Of a stretch of 64,000 nucleotides of DNA, positions 8,673-46,809 are shown piece by piece. Below the pieces are notes generated by a model, which ran no database searches, was not told where the DNA came from, and was given only the letters and a program-made list of their open reading frames with translations. The position numbers and the translations under genes are program-made. This DNA is from a virus, in IMG/VR virus record IMGVR_UViG_3300020202_000062, positions 1 through 64,000 of that record. One strand, written 5' to 3'. Each line of letters begins with the position of its first letter. The stretch's first letter is position 1.

Positions 8673-8674
8673 CG

Positions 8675-8737
8675 GGACGTGAGCGACAGGGTCGTCGCGG
8701 GGCACCGCGTCTACGGGTTCGATTCCCGTTCGGTCCA
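8675..8737 (+). ncRNA. shrunken tRNA-like RNA (no anticodon loop)
   Basis: Acceptor GGAC..GTCC-A; T arm ACGGG-TTCGATT-CCCGT; inner hairpins GCGAC/GTCGT and CGCGG-GGCA-CCGCG. Confidence 0.6.
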
Positions 8738-8743
8738 CTTCTT

Positions 8744-8787
8744 GGGCCGCTCTGGGCAGAGTAGGGGTTCGAGTCCCCCACGTTCCA
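8744..8787 (+). ncRNA. minimal tRNA-like RNA (acceptor, one hairpin, T arm)
   Basis: GGGG-TTCGAGT-CCCC T arm; GGGCCG/CGTTCC-A with G3:U70. Confidence 0.45.
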
Positions 8788-8789
8788 CT

Positions 8790-11217: not shown

Positions 11218-11592
11218 GGGGCCGACAGGCATCGACTTCGGTAAACTGAGTATCGATTTGCAACCCGAGTTCGTTGACAGACTCGTTAAACAGTTGACAA
11301 AAAACAAATGCAGATGAGAACCTGCTAGTTGCTGCCTAGTCTTCGGATTAGTAAACAGTAACTCTGTTAGTCCAAGAGACCGAACGGGGCTTGATCCAAA
11401 TGCCTGGCAACAGAATTGGATTTGACAAGCGGGAAAGACCCTTGACTCTGAGGAAAAGACTCCAGTGACTTCTAGGAATGAGACTAGACGAACGAGACCC
11501 GCTCGGTGCTAGCGTCAAGGCAGAACTCGGGAATGGTTGTATCGGAAAGATATGATGGCCGAAACACGGGGGTTCGATTCCCCCCGGCTCCA
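11218..11592 (+). ncRNA. ssrA: tmRNA
   Basis: GGGGCCG/CGGCTCC-A acceptor with G3:U70; T arm; tag ORF 11310-11339 ADENLLVAA*. Confidence 0.95.
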
Positions 11593-11595
11593 CTT

Positions 11596-18134: not shown

Positions 18135-18776
18135 ATGGTGTCTGCCAACCCTTACGCACACTTTGAAGACGACGACGAACTATTGGGCGTCAACACAGCA
18201 GCGACCCAGCACAACGGTGCTGTATTTGAACTCCGTGGCCCTCATGGTGAAGATCTTCCTGAAGAAATGCAGGAAGCGCTACAGAAATACCTGGGCTATA
18301 GCATCCCAGTACGATCAGAGACGGTCCCTCTGATCTTCCGTGCAATCACGGGAGTGTACGACTTCTTTGCGAACTTCGCAGACTATTCGACACAAGGACC
18401 GCTGCTAGCCGCCCTGGCAGAAGTAGTTGACGATCTAACAGACGGTAAACTCGGAGAGGTTTACAATCTGATCGAAGCCGAGCGTAAGATCCTTTACACT
18501 TGGGCCATCGAGAAGTTCCTTATTGCCATACTTCCCGAAGATGGGAACTGGGGTAAGGATCTCGCAGGAGATGCGAGCAATGAAGAAGTCGCGATGTATT
18601 TCGAGACTTACTTAGATGCTGTGCGCTTCGTTCGATCGAAGGCTAGTTCTATTTATTACAATCTATGTTCTAAACTCAATCGCCAGCCCGATGAAGGACT
18701 GGTCAACACTGGTATCTATTCTAAGCGTGATGAGATTCGTTACATCACACTGAACAAGCCACCAGTGGCACGTTAA
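18135..18776 (+). CDS. hypothetical protein
   Basis: 213 aa ORF. Confidence 0.75.
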   Translation: MVSANPYAHFEDDDELLGVNTAATQHNGAVFELRGPHGEDLPEEMQEALQKYLGYSIPVRSETVPLIFRAITGVYDFFANFADYSTQGPLLAALAEVVDDLTDGKLGEVYNLIEAERKILYTWAIEKFLIAILPEDGNWGKDLAGDASNEEVAMYFETYLDAVRFVRSKASSIYYNLCSKLNRQPDEGLVNTGIYSKRDEIRYITLNKPPVAR

Positions 18777-18799
18777 AACACAAAGGAACAAGAAGATAA

Positions 18800-19090
18800 A
18801 TGGCTAACACAGCATCGGTCCGGATCCTTCCGACCACAAACAACAACGCACGACGCTCACTTACTGAGGCTGGCATCAACAGCATCCTCGGTGACATCCT
18901 TGATTCAATGATCAAGTACCCCAAGCAGAGCACTGAAGAGCGTGCCTCAGAGACAGCACGTATCGCACGCAAGCGTAAGGTAACTAACCTTCAGGTTGCT
19001 GCCATCCGTGCCAACCTTTCACGTGGTACTTACGGTAACGTCCGCACTCTTATGAGGAACCGCAAGAACAGCCTCTCAGCATCTGCATAG
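18800..19090 (+). CDS. basic hypothetical protein
   Basis: AAGGA SD; Arg-rich. Confidence 0.75.
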   Translation: MANTASVRILPTTNNNARRSLTEAGINSILGDILDSMIKYPKQSTEERASETARIARKRKVTNLQVAAIRANLSRGTYGNVRTLMRNRKNSLSASA

Positions 19091-19910: not shown

Positions 19911-20336
19911 ATGAGTGGTTACACCGATACTCGTCCAGAGGATAGCGGAGTGATAGAAACGTTCACCTTTTCAACCAAGTTGATTCCAGATACTAAGGCA
20001 AACATTGACCTTCAATTAGAAGCGTTAAATGCTCGCCTTGAGAACCTGGTAGACAAGTGTAAGGTAGACTATCAAGACGGTAGGTACCCAATTCTCGCGA
20101 AAATCTTGGATGTAAGTCGCGATCGCACCGAACTGGAGCGCCTATCAAAGGGGCTCCAGATCGTGGCGTCGTTCATCGAAGAGTTTGACGTACTTCGTGA
20201 GCGACAGAATGTATTAGCAATGGCCCAGAAGGATCCAGGTTGGTTCGCTGCTGCCTTTGGCGACTTTGATAAAGACATCAACCATTTTCTAGATGTCATA
20301 ACTCAAGATGATGAGACTTTAACTAGCGAGGAATAG
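19911..20336 (+). CDS. hypothetical protein, first gene of the Ubl operon
   Basis: TAGTG-coupled to the E2 gene. Confidence 0.7.
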   Translation: MSGYTDTRPEDSGVIETFTFSTKLIPDTKANIDLQLEALNARLENLVDKCKVDYQDGRYPILAKILDVSRDRTELERLSKGLQIVASFIEEFDVLRERQNVLAMAQKDPGWFAAAFGDFDKDINHFLDVITQDDETLTSEE

Positions 20337-21892
20337 TGAAAACTGAGATCGTACTAGGTGCTGATGGCGTCCGTAAGGATGTCGACATGGGCACGGTGTC
20401 ACAGAGTGACTTCCGCGACATGGCCAGCACCTATAAGGAACTTTCAAAGATTGCTCTCTTCGATACTGGTATCCTACCCTTGCTAGGATCAGGTGTCCTA
20501 GCAATCCGCCATTGCCTCAATCATACACAGATTGTAGTCCAGCATGCTCCTGGAAAATACTACATCAACTGGTGTGACAACGAAGGTGATGAAGATGTAC
20601 AGACATACTACTTGGCTCAGCCATGGCGTATCGTTATCGGTGATATCAAGGACGACGAACTCTTAGGTGCTCGTACCTTCTATTCGCCTCACCCAATCCA
20701 GACATTAGAGCAGCCGCTCTATCACGTCAACCTACCTAACATCAACTGTGAAGGCTACGGCTATGCCTCTGAGCCTTATGGTGGGAACGGTGTAGGTTGG
20801 ATTTGCCTCTACCACACTGGTAGTTGGCACAACCTAACGATGGGTGAGAGGATCCGTGCTCTCATCGAGCGTGCCTCAGGCGTAGAAGTCTACAACGATG
20901 GCAACATGAGCGAGACAGACGGTCCTCGCTTTTACTTTAAGAACGAAAAGCCAGAATACGTTTGCTCCCCCGATGCCTGGCAGAAGAAGTCAGATGAAGA
21001 AGGATTTGAGTGGACGCTGGATGAGGATCTTTGGATTCCTGTCCTGGTTACTGGACGAGACAAGCAAGATCGGCACGACCCTGAGGGTGTACCGCTGACT
21101 CTAGAGATGGCAATGTATGGTGGCTATCGTGCGTACTACGAGGAGAATCTAGTACCGAAGCCAGTCAATGCATTTGGCCGCGACGATCTAGAGAATCCAA
21201 CGGGCAAGGAACTATTCAAGCATATCTCAAGCGCAGTATCCAAGGCGAACATCGCAACAACTGGACCCGTCAAGCCACAGGTAGTCGCGGTAGAGGAAGT
21301 TCTAGCAGAGAACATCTGCAAGTGCTGCGAAGAAGACGAAATTGATGACTACGACTTTGTTGTCATCCATGATGGCACTAAGATCTGCTCCAGATGTGCG
21401 AACGAAGGTTGCTACGTACCTTGCGAAGAGTGCCATGACTACTTCCACTACAAGTCTGCTAAGCCCTTCAGTGAGGATGAAGAACTCTGGGCGTGTAATG
21501 ATCACGCACACCTATTAGACACATGCTCTGGCTGTGGTGCATACTGGTGGAAGAATCCAGGTGCTGGAATTGATGACTGGAGACACTGCATAGACTGTGC
21601 CGTTCCTGTCGACTGTTCAAGCTGCGGTAACGTCGTTGCTGATTGTGATATCATCGTTGTAGAGGCTAAGGCTTCTCCAGACGATGAGCACACAATGGAG
21701 TTCTCTCTCTGTCACTCCTGTGCAGGTAGCACTAAGACCTGTGCATGTAATGTCTTGGTCAACGCCAAAGACACCGGCCCACTAAACGGCCTGTCGGTAT
21801 GTCAGCCATGCGTCGTGAATGACGATGAAGGCATCCCTTCTTATGTCCCACAGTCTGCCGTGAATGTCACGTTGACTACTACTACTTCCTAA
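20336..21892 (+). CDS. prokaryotic E2-like (Prok-E2_D type) protein fused to zinc-finger repeats
   Basis: LAQPW, LYHVNLPNINC...GWICL; about ten CxxC/CxxH pairs in the C-terminal part. Confidence 0.7.
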   Translation: MKTEIVLGADGVRKDVDMGTVSQSDFRDMASTYKELSKIALFDTGILPLLGSGVLAIRHCLNHTQIVVQHAPGKYYINWCDNEGDEDVQTYYLAQPWRIVIGDIKDDELLGARTFYSPHPIQTLEQPLYHVNLPNINCEGYGYASEPYGGNGVGWICLYHTGSWHNLTMGERIRALIERASGVEVYNDGNMSETDGPRFYFKNEKPEYVCSPDAWQKKSDEEGFEWTLDEDLWIPVLVTGRDKQDRHDPEGVPLTLEMAMYGGYRAYYEENLVPKPVNAFGRDDLENPTGKELFKHISSAVSKANIATTGPVKPQVVAVEEVLAENICKCCEEDEIDDYDFVVIHDGTKICSRCANEGCYVPCEECHDYFHYKSAKPFSEDEELWACNDHAHLLDTCSGCGAYWWKNPGAGIDDWRHCIDCAVPVDCSSCGNVVADCDIIVVEAKASPDDEHTMEFSLCHSCAGSTKTCACNVLVNAKDTGPLNGLSVCQPCVVNDDEGIPSYVPQSAVNVTLTTTTS

Positions 21893-21903
21893 GGATCATT
21901 TAA

Positions 21904-23133
21904 GTGAGTGAACCATTCGTAGCAGTTCCCATGGAGGAACTCAATTACTTCTGGGTCATCGAAGATGAGGTACCTTGCTTCATCGGTGACGTAGAAGACA
22001 TCACCAAGCACGCCGACACCTACGGTTATGAGATCTACTACGTTCTCGCTAACCGTGAGGTGACTACGAAGGGGGCAAACAATGTCGTCCATACTTCGTA
22101 CGAGCCAAGCACCTGGAAGGTTATCAACACCTTTGTCGGTCGCGCCATAGTCCCAGCAGATGGTGAAATCGCTCTTACTACTCTTGAGACCAACGCATGG
22201 TACAGCCTGCCGAAGATCCCGTGGGAACTAGTTCAGCGCATCGACACATTCTTCCGTGCAGTTGACAAGAAGCACTCGACTGAGTCTATTGTCATCCTCA
22301 CCTTTGATTCGACTAAGGACGATTCATCTGGTTGGGGTGTCTTGGTACCAAACCAGGAGAACTCAGCCGTAGATTGTGATTACGATCCCACCAGTGTGGC
22401 CGAGGCTAAGTCTGAGGCTGGCGAGCACATCAACATCGTAGGCTCAGTACATAGCCATCCCGATATGTCAGCCTATGCATCACACACTGACCACAAGGAT
22501 CAGGCCACCTTCCCTGGTATTCACATCACGCACGGCTGGTCTAACAAGACCGGTGGCGTTACTGAATACCACATCGAGTTCATGATGGGTGGTTACACCT
22601 GGGAGTTCAAGCCAGAGCAGGTATTCGCCAACATGCCACAGCCCGAGATCGTCGTAGACGAAGAGATCGAGGAGTGGATGTCTAAGGTGAAGCCAGCGAC
22701 GAAGACCTTCCCAAAAGCTGGGAGTGGCACCTTTGGCTCGACTTCTAGCCCTGGCGGCCACTCTTCGGGCTCTGGTAACGCTGCGCTAACTCGCATCACG
22801 TTACCCTCCGATGCTCCTAGCCTTGATGATACGATCATCATTGGTGAGATTGCTAGGGACTCGCGTAACTGCTTGCTTTGTGATGGGCTACTAATCGGTC
22901 CAGAACTGGACAAGCGTCGTTGCTTGTCTTGCCACTCGTATCTGCTTCTCCCAGAAGAGACCATCGCCAACCTCCTTGAGGTTCAGGCTGAGTATAAACT
23001 CTTCGCATGGGAGATCGATCCTAGCCAGAAGCCAGATAAGGCTATTGTCATTTGGCGGAAGACCGAGGATGGCAAGAACGTATACGAGAATGTCTACACT
23101 CCTGAATCTGAGTCAACCCTGGGAAAATCCTAA
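21904..23133 (+). CDS. JAB/MPN+ metallo-isopeptidase
   Basis: E...VGSVHSHPDMSAYASHTD (HxH-x7-S-x2-D). Confidence 0.9.
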   Translation: MSEPFVAVPMEELNYFWVIEDEVPCFIGDVEDITKHADTYGYEIYYVLANREVTTKGANNVVHTSYEPSTWKVINTFVGRAIVPADGEIALTTLETNAWYSLPKIPWELVQRIDTFFRAVDKKHSTESIVILTFDSTKDDSSGWGVLVPNQENSAVDCDYDPTSVAEAKSEAGEHINIVGSVHSHPDMSAYASHTDHKDQATFPGIHITHGWSNKTGGVTEYHIEFMMGGYTWEFKPEQVFANMPQPEIVVDEEIEEWMSKVKPATKTFPKAGSGTFGSTSSPGGHSSGSGNAALTRITLPSDAPSLDDTIIIGEIARDSRNCLLCDGLLIGPELDKRRCLSCHSYLLLPEETIANLLEVQAEYKLFAWEIDPSQKPDKAIVIWRKTEDGKNVYENVYTPESESTLGKS

Positions 23134-39709: not shown

Positions 39710-40057
39710 GTGAATAATATAGTAGAATTAAAGGACACTCTTAGAGAGTGTCTTTCTTTTTGCCCGGACGACTACAGGGGTCCTGTATCCTTACATTCGA
39801 AGCCCGATGGTGCGAGTCTGTTTATCGTTTGGAATGGCGCATACTTTCCCACTATGAACCTACGCAGGGGTGTCTGTGGCTGGATTAGATCATATGATCT
39901 CTCCAATAATATCTGGAATCTCATCGGTCTCTATGACGAGAAGACTGGCCTTGTCAAGTGGACGGATAGCCAAGGTTATGTATATGGTTCTGTAGACGCA
40001 TTCCACAACATGGTATTCGGTAAGGGTAGACTGTCATGCAAGAGGAAAGTAAGTTAG
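39710..40057 (+). CDS. hypothetical protein (ends CKRKVS)
   Basis: GTG start after the tRNA. Confidence 0.6.
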   Translation: MNNIVELKDTLRECLSFCPDDYRGPVSLHSKPDGASLFIVWNGAYFPTMNLRRGVCGWIRSYDLSNNIWNLIGLYDEKTGLVKWTDSQGYVYGSVDAFHNMVFGKGRLSCKRKVS

Positions 40058-40731
40058 TTAAGTATCCTCGTACCATGCACCTACCGTGGTCTCCTGGCTT
40101 ACAAAACGATGACAGAGTGATAGAAGATCTGTCAGTCCTAGAATCTTGTGACGATGTAGTAGTCACAGAGAAGATGGATGGAGAGAATACTACTCTCTAT
40201 TGCGATACGGCTCATGCTAGGTCTTTGACGAGCGGCCCGCATCCATCTCGCGCCAAAGTCAAAGAACTCTGGCAAAGTCTCCGTTGGGATATTCCCCCAG
40301 GTATGCGTATCTGTGGTGAGAATATGTACGCAAAGCATTCAATCTATTATGACAGCCTCAGATCCTACTTCCTCGTCTTCAATATCTGGCTCGGAGATGT
40401 ATGTCTCTCCTGGGAAGATACAATTCTCTGGTGTGGACTTCTCGGACTCGATACAGTCCCTGTCCTATACCGTGGCAAATGGAACGAATCAGTCTGGTCC
40501 GATCCATATCATGCCGAGCGGTGGATTCGTCAAGGGCGAGATGATCATGACGGTGGCTCCGAGCGGGAAGGATTTGTTGTCCGACTGGCTGAAGAAATAC
40601 GGCTTGACGACTTCGGAAGAAGTGTGGCCAAGTATGTACGCAAAGGTCACGTACAAACAGACGAACACTGGATGTCGCAGGAAATCACGCCAAATAAACT
40701 AAGTGCGAACGTAGATAAAGATATCTACTAA
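40036..40731 (+). CDS. RNA ligase (ATP-dependent, Rnl2-like family)
   Basis: KYPRT.HLPWS, TEKMDGEN, GEN.YA.HSI.Y, EG.VVR, KYVR. Confidence 0.9.
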   Translation: MQEESKLVKYPRTMHLPWSPGLQNDDRVIEDLSVLESCDDVVVTEKMDGENTTLYCDTAHARSLTSGPHPSRAKVKELWQSLRWDIPPGMRICGENMYAKHSIYYDSLRSYFLVFNIWLGDVCLSWEDTILWCGLLGLDTVPVLYRGKWNESVWSDPYHAERWIRQGRDDHDGGSEREGFVVRLAEEIRLDDFGRSVAKYVRKGHVQTDEHWMSQEITPNKLSANVDKDIY

Positions 40732-41604: not shown

Positions 41605-41679
41605 GCGGGTGTATCTCGGCGGTTAGAGCAACTGAATTTTAATCAGTTGGTCGGGGGTTCAAATCCCTTACGTATCGCG
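41605..41679 (+). pseudogene. degenerate tRNA-Lys(TTT)
   Basis: Good anticodon and T arms; mispaired acceptor stem. Confidence 0.55.
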
Positions 41680-42501: not shown

Positions 42502-42565
42502 CGGGGTAGTAGTCGATGAAAGCAGAGCGTACGGCTGCATGAGGTTGCTATACCCAGTATTTCTT

Positions 42566-42621
42566 GGGCTAGTCGCATTGGTAAATACTAGTTGTTGCGG
42601 GTTCGAATCCCGTCTAGTCCA
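42566..42621 (+). ncRNA. anticodon-less tRNA-Ala-like RNA
   Basis: GGGCTAG/CTAGTCC-A (G3:U70); T arm GCGGG-TTCGAAT-CCCGT; only 24 nt between. Confidence 0.65.
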
Positions 42622-43106: not shown

Positions 43107-43895
43107 ATGCGAATCATGATGGCAGGCGACACACATAGCAACTTTGAGCAGTGGGAGTACCTATTCCCCATCGCTAAGGACCTTAACGTTGATGTCATCA
43201 TGCAACTCGGAGACTTTGGATACTGGGCGCACACCAAGGGTGGACTTAACCACCTTGATGCTCTACACGATCTTGCTGTAGAGTACGATATCCCAATCTA
43301 CTGGCTGGATGGCAACCACGAGAACCATGTGCACCTACGGGTGAACAGGATCGCAGTATGGAATATGTTCTGTCTTATGGCAGGCGTAGATCCTGGGCCA
43401 TTCGTCCCGATCCGCGGCACGCATATTGTGCACACGCCGCGGGGTGCAACCTGGGAGTGGGACGGCGTTAAGTTCCTAGCAGTTGGCGGTGCGTTCAGTA
43501 TCGACAGAGGCTGGAGAGATGTTGGGGAGTCCTTCTGGTTTGAAGAGGAACTCACTGACGCTGAAGCAGACTATGCTTCTAGAGTTGGGAAGGTCGATGT
43601 GCTGGTGTCACACGACGTTCCGATGGGCACGGATATGGCGTACATGTTCATCCGACAGGGTAGGTCGTACAGACCTATTCCGCAGGCTGAACCTAACCGC
43701 CGACGCTTGAGGCAGGTGGTCGAGGCCACGAAGCCTAACTACATATACCATGGCCATTACCATATCTGCTATAAGAACTACCTCGAACTTAATAGCGGAC
43801 ACACCATTGTCGTCATGGGCCTCGGTGCTGATGGGATGGAACAGGATTCCTGGACTATTCTTGACACTGAGGACTTGACAAATCCGGTTGGATAG
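43107..43895 (+). CDS. calcineurin-like metallophosphoesterase
   Basis: GDTH, GDFG, DGNHE, SHD, HGHYH. Confidence 0.92.
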   Translation: MRIMMAGDTHSNFEQWEYLFPIAKDLNVDVIMQLGDFGYWAHTKGGLNHLDALHDLAVEYDIPIYWLDGNHENHVHLRVNRIAVWNMFCLMAGVDPGPFVPIRGTHIVHTPRGATWEWDGVKFLAVGGAFSIDRGWRDVGESFWFEEELTDAEADYASRVGKVDVLVSHDVPMGTDMAYMFIRQGRSYRPIPQAEPNRRRLRQVVEATKPNYIYHGHYHICYKNYLELNSGHTIVVMGLGADGMEQDSWTILDTEDLTNPVG

Positions 43896-43903
43896 TTTAC
43901 TAT
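43875..43903 (+). promoter_or_regulatory. sigma70/SigA-type promoter
   Basis: TTGACA-N17-TACTAT upstream of the Pth-like gene. Confidence 0.75.
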
Positions 43904-43935
43904 CAATAGACCGATGAGAAAAGGAAACACAAGAA

Positions 43936-44277
43936 ATGGAAAACACGTAGATTTCTAAACTGTATGTCATCACAAGATCAGACTTCAGTTGCGGCTATCA
44001 AGTAGCACAGTCTGTTCACGGTGGCATGGCATGGGCTATGGAAAAGTCCCATTTGCTAGATGAATGGTCAGGGACTGTAGTCTGTGTAACAGTAGAGTCT
44101 GAAGCCGATCTATATTGGTGGGCTTCTGAACTCGAATTACGTGGTCAAGAGGTATCCATTTTTAGAGAGCCAGACATTGGTGATCAACTAAGTTGCATTG
44201 CTGTTCTTCTGAATCAGGAGCAGGCACAGTGGCTTTGTAGGTTGCCCTTGGCTGGCTCTTGTGGTTTACCACCATAG
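43936..44277 (+). CDS. Pth2-like peptidyl-tRNA hydrolase with in-frame TAG at codon 5
   Basis: MENT*ISKLYVITRSDFSCGYQVAQSVHG...TVVCV...FREPDIGDQLSCIA...LPLA; AAGGA SD. Confidence 0.8.
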
Positions 44278-44306
44278 GTATCGTCTCCGAAAGGAGGTGA
44301 TACAGT

Positions 44307-44600
44307 ATGACTGAAATGGAACTTAAGGCTGAAGTAGCATCACTCCGAAATGAGTTAGCAACACTTCGTGACCTGATTGCAGGCGGCGATCTAGCGTCTG
44401 GCGTAAACCGCCTAGCACAAAAGATCGAACGTCAGCGTCAGGCTCTTGATAGACTGCACACCCGTGTGGTCAATCAGCGTTTCCACCTTCGCACTCTCGA
44501 TGAGTTAGGCCGCGGTCTAACCAAGGATGAGTACGAAACGGCTCGTGCAGCAGTGACTAACGAGCAGGTTAAGGATCGTCTAGTAGGCGTCATCGCTTAA
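44307..44600 (+). CDS. coiled-coil hypothetical protein
   Basis: AAGGAGGTGAT SD. Confidence 0.8.
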   Translation: MTEMELKAEVASLRNELATLRDLIAGGDLASGVNRLAQKIERQRQALDRLHTRVVNQRFHLRTLDELGRGLTKDEYETARAAVTNEQVKDRLVGVIA

Positions 44601-44662
44601 CCAATAGTGCCAGGTCAGACAGATCTAACGTAAAGTCGAGAATTGTAACTGCTGGCACTCTC

Positions 44663-44762
44663 GCCCCGGTAGCTTAACGGTAAAGCAGCGGATAAAGAGA
44701 CTCAGTATCTCACGGTTTGGGTCTCTCCGTCGATGGTGGTTCGAATCCACCCTGGGGCACCA
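44663..44762 (+). ncRNA. tRNA-like RNA with a long hairpin replacing the anticodon loop
   Basis: Intact acceptor, D and T arms and ACCA; insert GAGACTCAG/TTGGGTCTC. Confidence 0.75.
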
Positions 44763-44763
44763 T

Positions 44764-44831
44764 GGAAGAAATAGTGTAACCCGGTAGCACAGGCGACGGC
44801 CAGGCGAGGTTCGAATCCTCATCTTCCACCA
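44764..44831 (+). ncRNA. tRNA-like RNA with truncated anticodon arm
   Basis: GGAAGA/TCTTCC-ACCA; D arm; GGC-GACG-GCC; T arm. Confidence 0.7.
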
Positions 44832-44832
44832 C

Positions 44833-44939
44833 GCCCCGATAGCTTAGTGGGAAAGCCTCTTTCTGGATCCTGTGAGGCTAGCAGGGAAAGGTTAGAGTAG
44901 CGCGCAAACACGGAGGTTCGATTCCTCCTCGGGGTACCA
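44833..44939 (+). ncRNA. tRNA-like RNA with expanded anticodon/variable region
   Basis: GCCCCGA/TCGGGGT-ACCA; D and T arms intact; ~45-nt insert. Confidence 0.75.
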
Positions 44940-44940
44940 A

Positions 44941-45082
44941 GAGCCTGTAGTGCACGCCGAAGCGTGACGTAACATGAGTAGCCATACGAATCCTAGGCCA
45001 CCCTTATGGCGAGGGGTGTTACGGTAGTGGGAGCACGACCGCCAGAAAGCGGTTAGGATGGGTTCGAATCCCATCAGGTTCA
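44941..45082 (+). ncRNA. tRNA-like RNA with structured D-loop insert
   Basis: GAGCCTG/CAGGTTC-A; GTGC/GCAC D stem enclosing ~80 nt; 6-nt anticodon loop. Confidence 0.7.
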
Positions 45083-45083
45083 C

Positions 45084-45398
45084 ATGAAAACTAAAATAGA
45101 CAGAGACCTTTTATCAGAGTTAACAACCAGTACAGAACTTGAAGGCTGGACAGTGCTTCAGGATAAACACCTTCGCAACAAGAGGTGGACTGAACAGCGG
45201 CGCATCGTCCTAACCAATCCAGAGTTCCCTGGCATATGGGCTTTCGATTATGAAATTGGACTTACCGAGATGCAGGACTTCTCTTGGTATGACCACTACC
45301 CAGAAGAGATAGAGTTGTTCCAGGTTGTACCTAGAACAGAAACGGTAATGGTGTATGAAAAAGCCCCTGTGGAAGAGCACGATAGTAATCTGGACTGA
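45084..45398 (+). CDS. hypothetical protein
   Basis: RWT..., Y.IGLTEMQ; ATG just after the tRNA-like RNA. Confidence 0.75.
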   Translation: MKTKIDRDLLSELTTSTELEGWTVLQDKHLRNKRWTEQRRIVLTNPEFPGIWAFDYEIGLTEMQDFSWYDHYPEEIELFQVVPRTETVMVYEKAPVEEHDSNLD

Positions 45399-45552
45399 GT
45401 TCGATCCATACGATACAGAGATCGACACTCTAGCGTGGCACGCAATGGAAGGCGACGGGTATTGTTCGCGCCACATTGCAGATCACATAGCAGATCCAGA
45501 GTCAGATCCCGATTGGGATGGAACAGAATTCTTCTGGGATCCAGAAGAGTAA
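45355..45552 (+). CDS. acidic hypothetical protein
   Basis: 65 aa ORF. Confidence 0.55.
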   Translation: MKKPLWKSTIVIWTEFDPYDTEIDTLAWHAMEGDGYCSRHIADHIADPESDPDWDGTEFFWDPEE

Positions 45553-45597
45553 GGCTTGAGGTAGGGTGTTCGGGTGTGTGCGCCCTGCCTCAAATTT

Positions 45598-45669
45598 GCT
45601 TCGGTAGTTCAATGGTAGAACAGCGCCCTCTAAAAGCGTATGTTGAGGGTTCGAATCCCTTCCGAGGCG
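45598..45669 (+). tRNA. amber suppressor tRNA (CTA), tRNA-Gln-like body
   Basis: Loop CT-CTA-AA with anticodon at 45630-45632; D arm identical to tRNA-Gln(CTG) at 5283; G73. Confidence 0.85.
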
Positions 45670-45674
45670 CTCAA

Positions 45675-45858
45675 GATCACGTAGCTCAGGTGGATAGAGC
45701 AGCGCAAAAACGGAGGCGTGGTATCTAGAGAAGGTTTGCGGATGCACCGGGACCGGGCCGCATGCAGTAATGTATGTGGTTGGGGAACCTTAGCCCCCGG
45801 CAGGGAAGCGCGTTATCCTAACTCTAGCGTTGCGGAGGTTCGAGTCCTCCCGTGATCA
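45675..45858 (+). ncRNA. tRNA-like RNA with ~120-nt structured insert in the anticodon arm
   Basis: GATCACG/CGTGATC-A; GCTC/GAGC D arm; GGAGG-TTCGAGT-CCTCC T arm. Confidence 0.75.
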
Positions 45859-45859
45859 C

Positions 45860-46033
45860 ATGAAAACATATCAAGATATATTCGAAAGCATTGTCGCATT
45901 ACTTGATGCTCCTGTTACAGATGACCCGGTGGACATTCTCAAGTTAATCGCGGCAGAGTGTGAATATCCAGGTGAGTACACCTACTTTGATAACAAGGGT
46001 CAGTGGGTAAGATACCCTATAGAAGGCGAGTAA
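45860..46033 (+). CDS. hypothetical protein
   Basis: ATG 2 nt after the discriminator. Confidence 0.6.
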   Translation: MKTYQDIFESIVALLDAPVTDDPVDILKLIAAECEYPGEYTYFDNKGQWVRYPIEGE

Positions 46034-46034
46034 A

Positions 46035-46259
46035 ATGAATTTAGTTACCTGCACATGCGGTAATGATCAGATCATAATCGTAACTCCCGCAGTTCATAAG
46101 TCTAGCGAAGAGATTGAAATCGTAGACAACGGATATCAAGCCTGGAACAGTGACTCTAGTTGGGAAATATCTGACGAAGACGGAGCAAGGTTTGTTTGCG
46201 AAGAATGCGACCATTCTTGGAAAGTTGATCGTCCAGTTACTTGGGAGTGGATTAACTAG
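46035..46259 (+). CDS. zinc-ribbon hypothetical protein
   Basis: CTCG, CEEC. Confidence 0.65.
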   Translation: MNLVTCTCGNDQIIIVTPAVHKSSEEIEIVDNGYQAWNSDSSWEISDEDGARFVCEECDHSWKVDRPVTWEWIN

Positions 46260-46538
46260 ATGAGTATGTCTACTAGAGTAGAAGCCTACAAAGATCCAGA
46301 AGACGAGAAGTACATACAGTACAAAGCCATCTGGGATGCATGTAGAGAAGCATACGTTCAGGTCCCTGATGAAGTGATGAGTTACTTCGGATATGAAACA
46401 CCTGATGAGCATGGTGTAAGGGTGAACTTAAAGCATGAGAAATTCTCTGATCGTGATTCGGTAAGTGATGGTATTATCATCAAGGTAGCAGACATACCTA
46501 AAGATGTAACTGTCATTAGGTTTGTGAACAGTTACTAA
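46260..46538 (+). CDS. hypothetical phage protein
   Basis: 92 aa; abuts the previous stop. Confidence 0.75.
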   Translation: MSMSTRVEAYKDPEDEKYIQYKAIWDACREAYVQVPDEVMSYFGYETPDEHGVRVNLKHEKFSDRDSVSDGIIIKVADIPKDVTVIRFVNSY

Positions 46539-46548
46539 TTAGTGACAA

Positions 46549-46621
<73 letters not shown>

Positions 46622-46625
46622 CCGC

Positions 46626-46701
46626 GCAGGGATAGTATAACGGTTCATTACATATCTATGGTACAGATATAATCAGGGTTCGATTCCCTGTTCCTGCTCC
46701 A
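46626..46701 (+). tRNA. tRNA-Thr(GGT)
   Basis: TATCT-ATGGTAC-AGATA; TCCA end. Confidence 0.88.
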
Positions 46702-46702
46702 A

Positions 46703-46778
46703 GGACCAGTAGCTCAGCCAGGCTTAGAGCATCCGTCTGATACACGGAAGGCCGGGGGTTCGAATCCCTCTTGGTCCA
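46703..46778 (+). tRNA. tRNA-Ile(GAT)
   Basis: TCCGT-CTGATAC-ACGGA. Confidence 0.93.
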
Positions 46779-46782
46779 CTTG

Positions 46783-46809
46783 AAGGTCACGTTTATTCGT
46801 GGCCTTTTT
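46783..46809 (+). terminator. intrinsic terminator closing the tRNA cluster
   Basis: AAGGTCACG-TTTATT-CGTGGCCTT-TTT. Confidence 0.7.

Follow-up and report, generated by a model that had tools for sequence, protein, structure and literature searches.

tRNA-shaped elements with rebuilt arms in a phage tRNA array include a member of a conserved, undescribed RNA family

Introduction

Small RNAs that borrow part of the transfer RNA (tRNA) shape are known from several settings. Beside the tRNA genes of phage T4 lie the small stable RNAs species 1 (rnaC) and species 2 (rnaD), the nearest precedent in kind for the elements described here; rnaC ends in a canonical T arm (CCGGG-UUCGAAU-CCCGG) behind long hairpins. 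Class II tRNAs (Leu, Ser and Tyr) carry an extra arm between the anticodon and T arms, and transfer-messenger RNA (tmRNA) joins a tRNA-like acceptor/T domain to a large pseudoknotted insert. In engineered tRNA scaffolds, in the tRNA-microRNA units of murine gammaherpesvirus 68 and in mascRNA, the tRNA shape gives processing by RNase P and RNase Z as well as stability. Here we analyse a tRNA array in the first 64,000 nucleotides (the window) of the virus record IMGVR_UViG_3300020202_000062. Five + strand elements in this array, E1 (44663-44762), E2 (44764-44831), E3 (44833-44939), E4 (44941-45082) and E5 (45675-45858), have the outline of a tRNA in which one region has been rebuilt. E5 is a new member of a conserved and undescribed family of tRNA-shaped RNAs, and E1-E4 are lineage-specific relatives in kind.

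A further group, the YrlA RNAs (RF02553) of actinobacteria and phages, does not decode, has a true tRNA-like D/T elbow and is handled by tRNA enzymes (PMC4201824; bioRxiv 10.1101/312249). YrlA RNAs mimic tRNA, and the M. smegmatis YrlA is an RNase P substrate to which CCA is added (PMC4201824). By the features that define each, E5 is not a T4 species 1 or 2 RNA, a YrlA RNA or a tmRNA. The folds of rnaC and rnaD lack the full acceptor/D/T outline of E1-E5, whereas E5 has a conserved core of its own. No sequence relationship to T4 rnaC/rnaD or T5 RNA1/RNA2 was found, since blastn against 50,697 phage records returned nothing for E1-E4 and only Gilsonviruses for E5. E5 shares a short motif with YrlA (ACGGAG compared to GNCGAA), but the two are permuted: in YrlA both ends lie in the anticodon-side stem, which binds Ro60, and a loop closes the acceptor-like stem, while the ends of E5 form the acceptor stem. 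Nor does a Ro60 (TROVE) gene, expected of YrlA, lie on the same strand within ~4 kb of E5. E5 resembles tmRNA in its large pseudoknotted insert, and the same phages encode both; for three E5 relatives, a tmRNA is 1-3 kb away. E5 differs from tmRNA in that its D arm is complete, a tag reading frame is absent and G3:U70 is not conserved, and the tmRNA model (RF00023) has no hit within 44400-46100. The domain of E5 occupies the place of the class II extra arm, but it is ~110 nt long, whereas the class II arm has 10-20 nt, does not pair with the anticodon loop and leaves the 7-nt loop in place. Finally, tRNA scaffolds, tRNA-microRNA units and mascRNA are eukaryotic or artificial and their attached RNA is released or inert, whereas body and domain of E5 form one knotted fold. 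A literature search found no description of such RNAs in actinophages.

Results

Inspection of the sequence confirmed that five tRNA-derived elements lie on the + strand at the positions given in an earlier, preliminary description of this DNA. In E1, E3, E4 and E5, all seven pairs of the acceptor stem are present and a 5-bp T stem carries a TTCGA(A/T/G)T loop. E2 deviates slightly from this pattern, with six acceptor pairs plus an A.A and a T stem of 4 bp. As first described, three of the elements encode CCA: E1, E2 and E3 end in ACCA, and E4 and E5 in A-C-ATG. Spacers of a single nucleotide separate E1, E2, E3 and E4, as in the phage's own Gln-Gln and Thr-Ile tRNA pairs. No tRNA of this phage is the recent source of any scaffold.

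ARAGORN called none of the five elements. With the Rfam tRNA model (RF00005; gathering score 29 bits), E1 (55.7 bits) and E3 (43.2 bits) pass, with alignments that carry 29-32 nt extra at the anticodon loop; E4 scores below the threshold (16.5 bits, on its 3' part only), and E2 and E5 give no hit. A canonical anticodon arm (5-bp stem, 7-nt loop, U33) is found in none of them. The preliminary statement that no element has a normal anticodon is correct for E1, E2, E3 and E5 but too strong for E4, where ACCGC-CAGAAAG-GCGGT forms a 5-bp stem and a 7-nt loop reading GAA, albeit with A33 in place of U33.

E5 (45675-45858) consists of an acceptor stem with U3:A70, a full D arm, a short anticodon-position hairpin, a variable-arm domain of ~110 nt and a T arm. 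The preliminary description noted a paired insert of ~120 nt; the domain (45720-45833) lies not in the anticodon loop but in the variable-arm position, 3' of a hairpin with a 4-bp stem. This hairpin (45702-45719) has the stem GCGC/GCGT and a 10-nt loop, AAAAACGGAG, from which AACG (45709-45712) pairs with CGTT (45811-45814) to form a pseudoknot. The CTAGAG/CTCTAG stem noted earlier is the closing helix of the domain (45725-45730/45822-45827), and it covaries across the family described below. A core (45735-45759 and 45782-45814) lies within this helix, and the GNRA hairpin is present at 45756-45781 with a GUAA loop. The other two pairings proposed for E5, AAGGTT/AACCTT and CCGGG/CCCGG, fall in columns that are invariant in the family. 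No Rfam family matches the domain at E <= 10. Helix 8 of the signal recognition particle (SRP) RNA was considered and rejected: its CCGGAAGGAAGC resembles the E5 stretch CCCGGCAGGGAAGC, but the opposite strand misfits and no SRP model matched.

We collected 37 copies of E5-like RNAs, 36 of them distinct in sequence, from Streptomyces Gilsonvirus phages, from uncultured phages and from the genomes of actinomycetes. A search for exact matches to two blocks of the core returned copies in IMG/VR, in metagenomes and in actinomycete genomes (Actinoplanes, Kitasatospora, Streptosporangium, Frankia, Microbispora, Herbidospora, Planotetraspora, Streptomyces and Kineosporiaceae). For many copies the setting is a tRNA array of up to 24 genes; around the chromosomal copies the genes are unrelated, with no conserved neighbours. 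At the DNA level, the only relatives are Streptomyces phages of the genus Gilsonvirus, and the match is confined to E5.

The preliminary description had proposed covariance models across phages as a check, and E5 passed it. A model (R1) built from 31 family sequences, with the window left out, finds E5 over its full length (45675-45858, model positions 1-187) with 163.3 bits and an E-value of 2.8e-45; the second-best hit, at 27.7 bits, is at the level of a tRNA. RNAalifold detects compensatory change in 7 of 7 acceptor pairs, in all four pairs of the anticodon-position stem (columns 30-33/49-52), in 4 of 5 pairs of the T stem and in the domain hairpin. In per-sequence cofolding, all members form the closing helix of the domain, for which eight or more different paired sequences occur. 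Some 60 core columns are invariant among the 31 sequences, and the E5 of the window keeps every one. Enclosed by the covarying closing helix, this near-invariant core reads TTGCGGA-GCACCGGGNCCGGG ... GGGNACCT-A-CCCCCGGCAGGGAAGC.

The knot between loop and tail is also a property of the family. A loop of the AAAACG type pairs with a tail of the CGTTT type, 3' of GGGAAGCG, and relatives carry the compensatory variants AAGCG/CGCTT, AAAGC/GCTTT, ACACG/CGTGT and AGAC/GTCT. When partners were permuted, own loop-tail pairing scored 165.5 compared to 154.0 ± 3.2, and 1 of 2000 permutations reached the observed value, a test that is inflated by the relatedness of the sequences; the four kinds of change are mutually independent. 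We used cofolding and partner permutation here because column-wise mutual information on the MAFFT alignment was too noisy, with the closing helix and the loop out of register. The loop at the anticodon position has 8-12 nt across the family, and its pairing with the tail makes codon reading impossible. Acceptor sequences and position 3:70 vary among members. The family thus holds to no one aminoacylation identity, as would suit a generic handle.

E5 is followed directly by a start codon, and this A-C-ATG junction is kept in the Streptomyces phages Forrest and Patelgo. In Streptomyces phage Moab (MT114162.1), a 'hypothetical protein' (gene 140, 82798-82938) is annotated over an E5-family RNA and is probably a false protein call.

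E1 (44663-44762) has a tRNA body with an anticodon arm lengthened to ~17 bp, a UCAC cap loop, the T arm GGTGG-TTCGAAT-CCACC and an ACCA end. Its Rfam alignment contains a 32-nt insert, and a 33-nt anticodon loop region builds the long arm. The long hairpin described earlier at this position is well supported by folding energy (z = -3.84), and it is the only arm that clearly beats shuffled sequences. E2 (44764-44831) is a 68-nt body in which, as first read, the anticodon arm is reduced to GGC-GACG-GCC, a 3-bp stem with a 4-nt loop; its predicted fold has an acceptor, a D-like arm, this mini-hairpin and a T arm before the ACCA end. E3 (44833-44939) resembles E1 in its 5' part and has an irregular extended arm with no clear anticodon stem, a 14-nt segment 5' of the T arm and an ACCA end.

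In E4 (44941-45082), ~70-80 nt are inserted in the D-loop region of a tRNA body with the T arm ATGGG-TTCGAAT-CCCAT. The D stem GUGC/GCAC is rivalled by a local hairpin in the energy fold. E4 has G3:U70 and A73, the mark of alanine, and its acceptor is closest to tRNA-Ala of related arrays. The ATG of an open reading frame (ORF; 45084-45398) begins 2 nt past E4. For this ORF, neither IMG/VR nor a set of 5.8 billion proteins yielded a relative, except itself on two identical assemblies.

The record that holds the array comprises 158,928 bp and is estimated to be 75% complete; the same phage is also present on a separate contig of 235,865 bp. It is a tRNA-rich phage of soil type, with 26 tRNA genes and a tmRNA that is a gene of its own (11218-11593), all on the + strand within the first 47 kb of the record. 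ARAGORN found no tRNAs for Phe, Tyr, Trp or His in the record. Region 43875-46807 is a + strand mixture of small ORFs, real tRNAs and the five odd elements. A consensus scan located a promoter-like site (TTGACA-17-TACTAT, 43875-43903, +) that may be the start of a unit running through the array, and a terminator-like hairpin with a T run 3' of tRNA-Ile (46782-46807, +) that is likely its end. Three nucleotides 5' of E1 and 5 nt past the stop of ORF 44307-44600 lies a further + strand hairpin (44606-44659) with an 8-bp closing stem and a fold of -19.1 kcal/mol (z = -3.31). It has no T run behind it and is therefore not an intrinsic terminator; homologs were not found. An ordinary tRNA with anticodon CUA, the amber suppressor type (45598-45670, +; ARAGORN; Rfam 63.7 bits), ends 4 nt 5' of E5. 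ORFs that overlap the elements on either strand have no Pfam match and were taken as spurious, and a search of the phage genome for antisense targets of the inserts gave matches at chance level only.

Odd elements with a T arm occur often, both in this phage and in related arrays, with several in Forrest. Between two tRNA-Ser genes of the window, the element at 8674-8788 has the acceptor GGGACGT/ACGTTCC with G3:U70 and A73; besides two hairpins that look like T arms it contains three others (fold z = -2.3). Directly 3' of tRNA-Ala lies a tRNA-Ala-like remnant (42503-42621) that includes a 55-nt mini-element (42566-42620) with the acceptor GGGCTAG/CTAGTCC (G3:U70, A73) and a perfect T arm, and with neither D nor anticodon arm; a similar 59-nt mini-element follows the E5 relative in locus L005 (168-226). 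The Lys(UUU)-like tRNA at 41608-41676 is degenerate (Rfam 32 bits, no ARAGORN call, weak acceptor stem) and looks like a true decaying tRNA, in contrast to E1-E5. Two other phage contigs contain unannotated tRNA-like elements (L007, 5645-5741; L074, 10667-10801): one combines G3:U70 with a large insert in the D region and lacks an anticodon arm, and the other, flanked by tRNA-Phe and tRNA-His, is limited to a T arm and part of an acceptor.

ORFs begin 0-4 nt from the 3' ends of many tRNAs and tRNA-like elements in the window (for example 5357, 8879, 12382, 45082 and 45858; CCATG or ACATG), and the same arrangement is annotated in Forrest. Such starts leave no room for a ribosome-binding site, which suggests tRNA punctuation yielding leaderless mRNAs.

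Upstream of a Ro-like gene (21182-22798) in Forrest (L009), the stretches 18620-18960 and 20297-20452 contain five unannotated copies of the motif GGGTCGGAT, four of them reading GGGTCGGATG; a T arm follows three of the copies. This motif is similar to GNCGAA, to which Ro60 binds. No YrlA was found in Forrest at the Rfam gathering threshold (69 bits), and judging by the motif these copies are likely phage Y RNAs that fall short of it.

Discussion

At about even chances, we favour the reading that all five elements are tRNA-shaped, non-decoding RNAs for which the tRNA pathway provides maturation and the rebuilt arm the activity. E1-E5 would be transcribed in one + strand unit that also holds genuine tRNAs and small ORFs. 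Most likely they would be excised by RNase P and the enzymes of the tRNA 3' end and then completed with CCA. From the tRNA body they would gain defined ends, an L-shaped elbow and stability; the working part, binding a putative conserved partner, would be the region that was rebuilt (anticodon, variable or D). We infer that E1-E4 are functional and that the rebuilt arm, not the tRNA body, is the active part; the arm is favoured because the body of the E5 family varies in sequence while the inserted domain is invariant. The preliminary description had proposed that the phage uses tRNA bodies as scaffolds for other RNAs. This idea fits E5: across 36 distinct relatives, the acceptor, D, anticodon-position and T stems stay paired through changes of sequence and the insert carries the near-invariant core. 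The attached role as decoy, aptamer or defence RNA found no support in our results.

Several results weigh against this reading, most of them for E1-E4. No relatives of these four elements were found by blastn in distant mode among 50,697 phage records, an exact 25-mer of the E4 insert has no match in IMG/VR, and blastn-short against 37 related loci returned only T-arm matches. The phage has no close relatives in the collections searched; its nearest one, found through the upstream metallophosphatase gene (42% protein identity), has an odd tRNA-like element of its own and none of E1-E5. Since relatives are lacking, the case for selection on E1-E4 is one of anatomy only. In E2, the acceptor stem contains an extra A beside its A.A. 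The inserts had been described as well paired, which folding energy bears out for the E1 arm but not for the E3 insert (z = 0.07) and at best weakly for the E4 insert alone (z = -1.29; whole element, z = -2.95). For E5, the knot with the anticodon-position loop makes the domain part of an integrated fold rather than free cargo on a neutral carrier. The family is also rare or sporadic: an even draw of 150 genomes from one carrier's class contained no true member, and the unpublished genome G032, part of that sample, gave a tRNA-level match only. The folding-energy test carries little weight, because the conserved E5 domain itself scores only z = -0.85. The anatomical case for E1-E4 is that the scaffolds are unbroken, CCA is kept, the spacing is exact and one arm is cleanly replaced.

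Anatomy is also what bears on the suggestion that E1-E4 are decaying or rearranged tRNA genes without a function of their own and that only E5 is a real gene. Their lack of homologs in the collections searched and in the nearest relative would fit decay, as would E3 and E4 inserts that fold no better than chance, the E2 acceptor mismatch, A33 in E4 and the presence of another degenerate tRNA at 41608-41676. We nevertheless regard decay as unlikely, since random decay would not spare the acceptor and T stems that are unbroken in these scaffolds. Both arms are intact in E1, E3 and E4, E1-E3 keep ACCA, the 1-nt spacing is exact, each change is a clean insertion or replacement of one arm with no scattered mismatches, and similar odd elements recur in related tRNA arrays. 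A different view is that the tRNA body itself does the work, as a mimic or decoy for alanyl-tRNA synthetase, RNase P, the CCA enzyme, EF-Tu or host tRNA toxins and sensors, and that the inserts just bar translation. G3:U70 with A73 is found in three of eight odd elements of the window (E4, 8674-8788 and 42566-42620) compared to one of 26 ordinary tRNAs (one-sided Fisher test, ~0.03, on small numbers), and G3:U70 recurs in odd elements of other arrays. The phage also has an RNA ligase gene (40030-40728; PF09414, E 2.6e-33) ~4 kb upstream of the array, and Gilsonviruses encode RNA ligase and polynucleotide kinase. The T4 versions of these two enzymes repair cleaved tRNA, and by this likeness the genes point to host attack on tRNA. 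However, the body of the E5 family is free to vary and the insert is its invariant part, elements without an anticodon loop cannot bait anticodon nucleases, and ligase and kinase are not near family members outside Gilsonviruses. A decoy body appears distinctly improbable to us.

The short motif shared with YrlA raises the question of whether E5, and perhaps others, could be a Y-RNA-like partner of Ro60 and a permuted YrlA relative. The family loop motif ACG(A/G)AG resembles GNCGAAN0-1G and stands at the site expected of a permuted motif, and Gilsonviruses encode Ro60, as does the DNA ~5 kb upstream of the family copy in locus L007. We give this a low probability. In E5 the motif bases are occupied in the pseudoknot, and the only Rfam YrlA match is a 30.5-bit artefact across two genes, running from the T arm of tRNA(CUA) into the D arm of E5. 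No TROVE match was found in the 158,928-bp record, which at 75% completeness does not prove absence from the whole phage, nor in two other phage contigs (85-89% complete) or the remaining family loci. The Microbispora gene is 3.3 Mb away, two of five host genomes lack Ro60, and Forrest has better Y RNA candidates beside its Ro60 gene. The elements might instead be chiefly cutting signals, a tRNA punctuation that frees small neighbouring mRNAs as leaderless messages. An ATG directly follows E4 and E5 (A-C-ATG), with the junction kept in Forrest and Patelgo, several ordinary tRNAs of the phage also abut an ATG (CCATG), and leaderless mRNAs are common in actinobacteria. Yet E1, E2 and E3 precede another element, not an ORF, and punctuation leaves unexplained both the invariant E5 core and the chromosomal copies with unrelated neighbours. 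As the chief function it seems to us highly unlikely; E4 and E5 may have it as an additional role. Interrupted tRNAs with self-splicing or protein-spliced introns, the second of which the preliminary description had allowed for, were rejected as an explanation, and we see almost no chance that it is correct. The record has no Phe, Tyr, Trp or His tRNAs, the E4 loop reads GAA and the phage has an RNA ligase, all of which would suit introns. But no cut restores a tRNA: removing the insert of E1, E3 or E5 leaves no 7-nt loop with U33. In E5, the insert is the most conserved part and lies in the variable region, and the anticodon-position loop has 8-12 nt and is knotted. The inserts are, as stated before, far too short for group I introns, and no intron family in Rfam matches at E <= 10. 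RtcB, a CCA-adding enzyme and Ro60 were all looked for and not found in the record; a splicing endonuclease was not searched for.

Beyond the reading we favour, a wider proposal is possible but doubtful. The elements could belong to an undescribed class of tRNA-shaped effector RNAs in actinomycete phages and mobile tRNA arrays, in which a generic tRNA body would provide maturation and stability and the rebuilt arm would be a dedicated module for binding. E5 would be the conserved, knotted prototype, its near-invariant core gripping a universal cellular target in translation or RNA surveillance, and E1-E4 would be rapidly evolving members that carry private modules.

Phage tRNA genes are usually read as a supply of codons or as spares against host tRNA nucleases, and E1-E5 cannot supply codons. 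In the E5 family, a core of ~60 nt is nearly invariant from cultured Streptomyces phages to the chromosomes of rare actinomycetes. Annotation is affected as well, as tRNA finders miss such elements and at least one phage record places a protein over an E5-family RNA. The cultured phages Gilson, Forrest and Patelgo carry the same RNA, so the family provides a concrete, testable case of phages using the tRNA shape beyond decoding.

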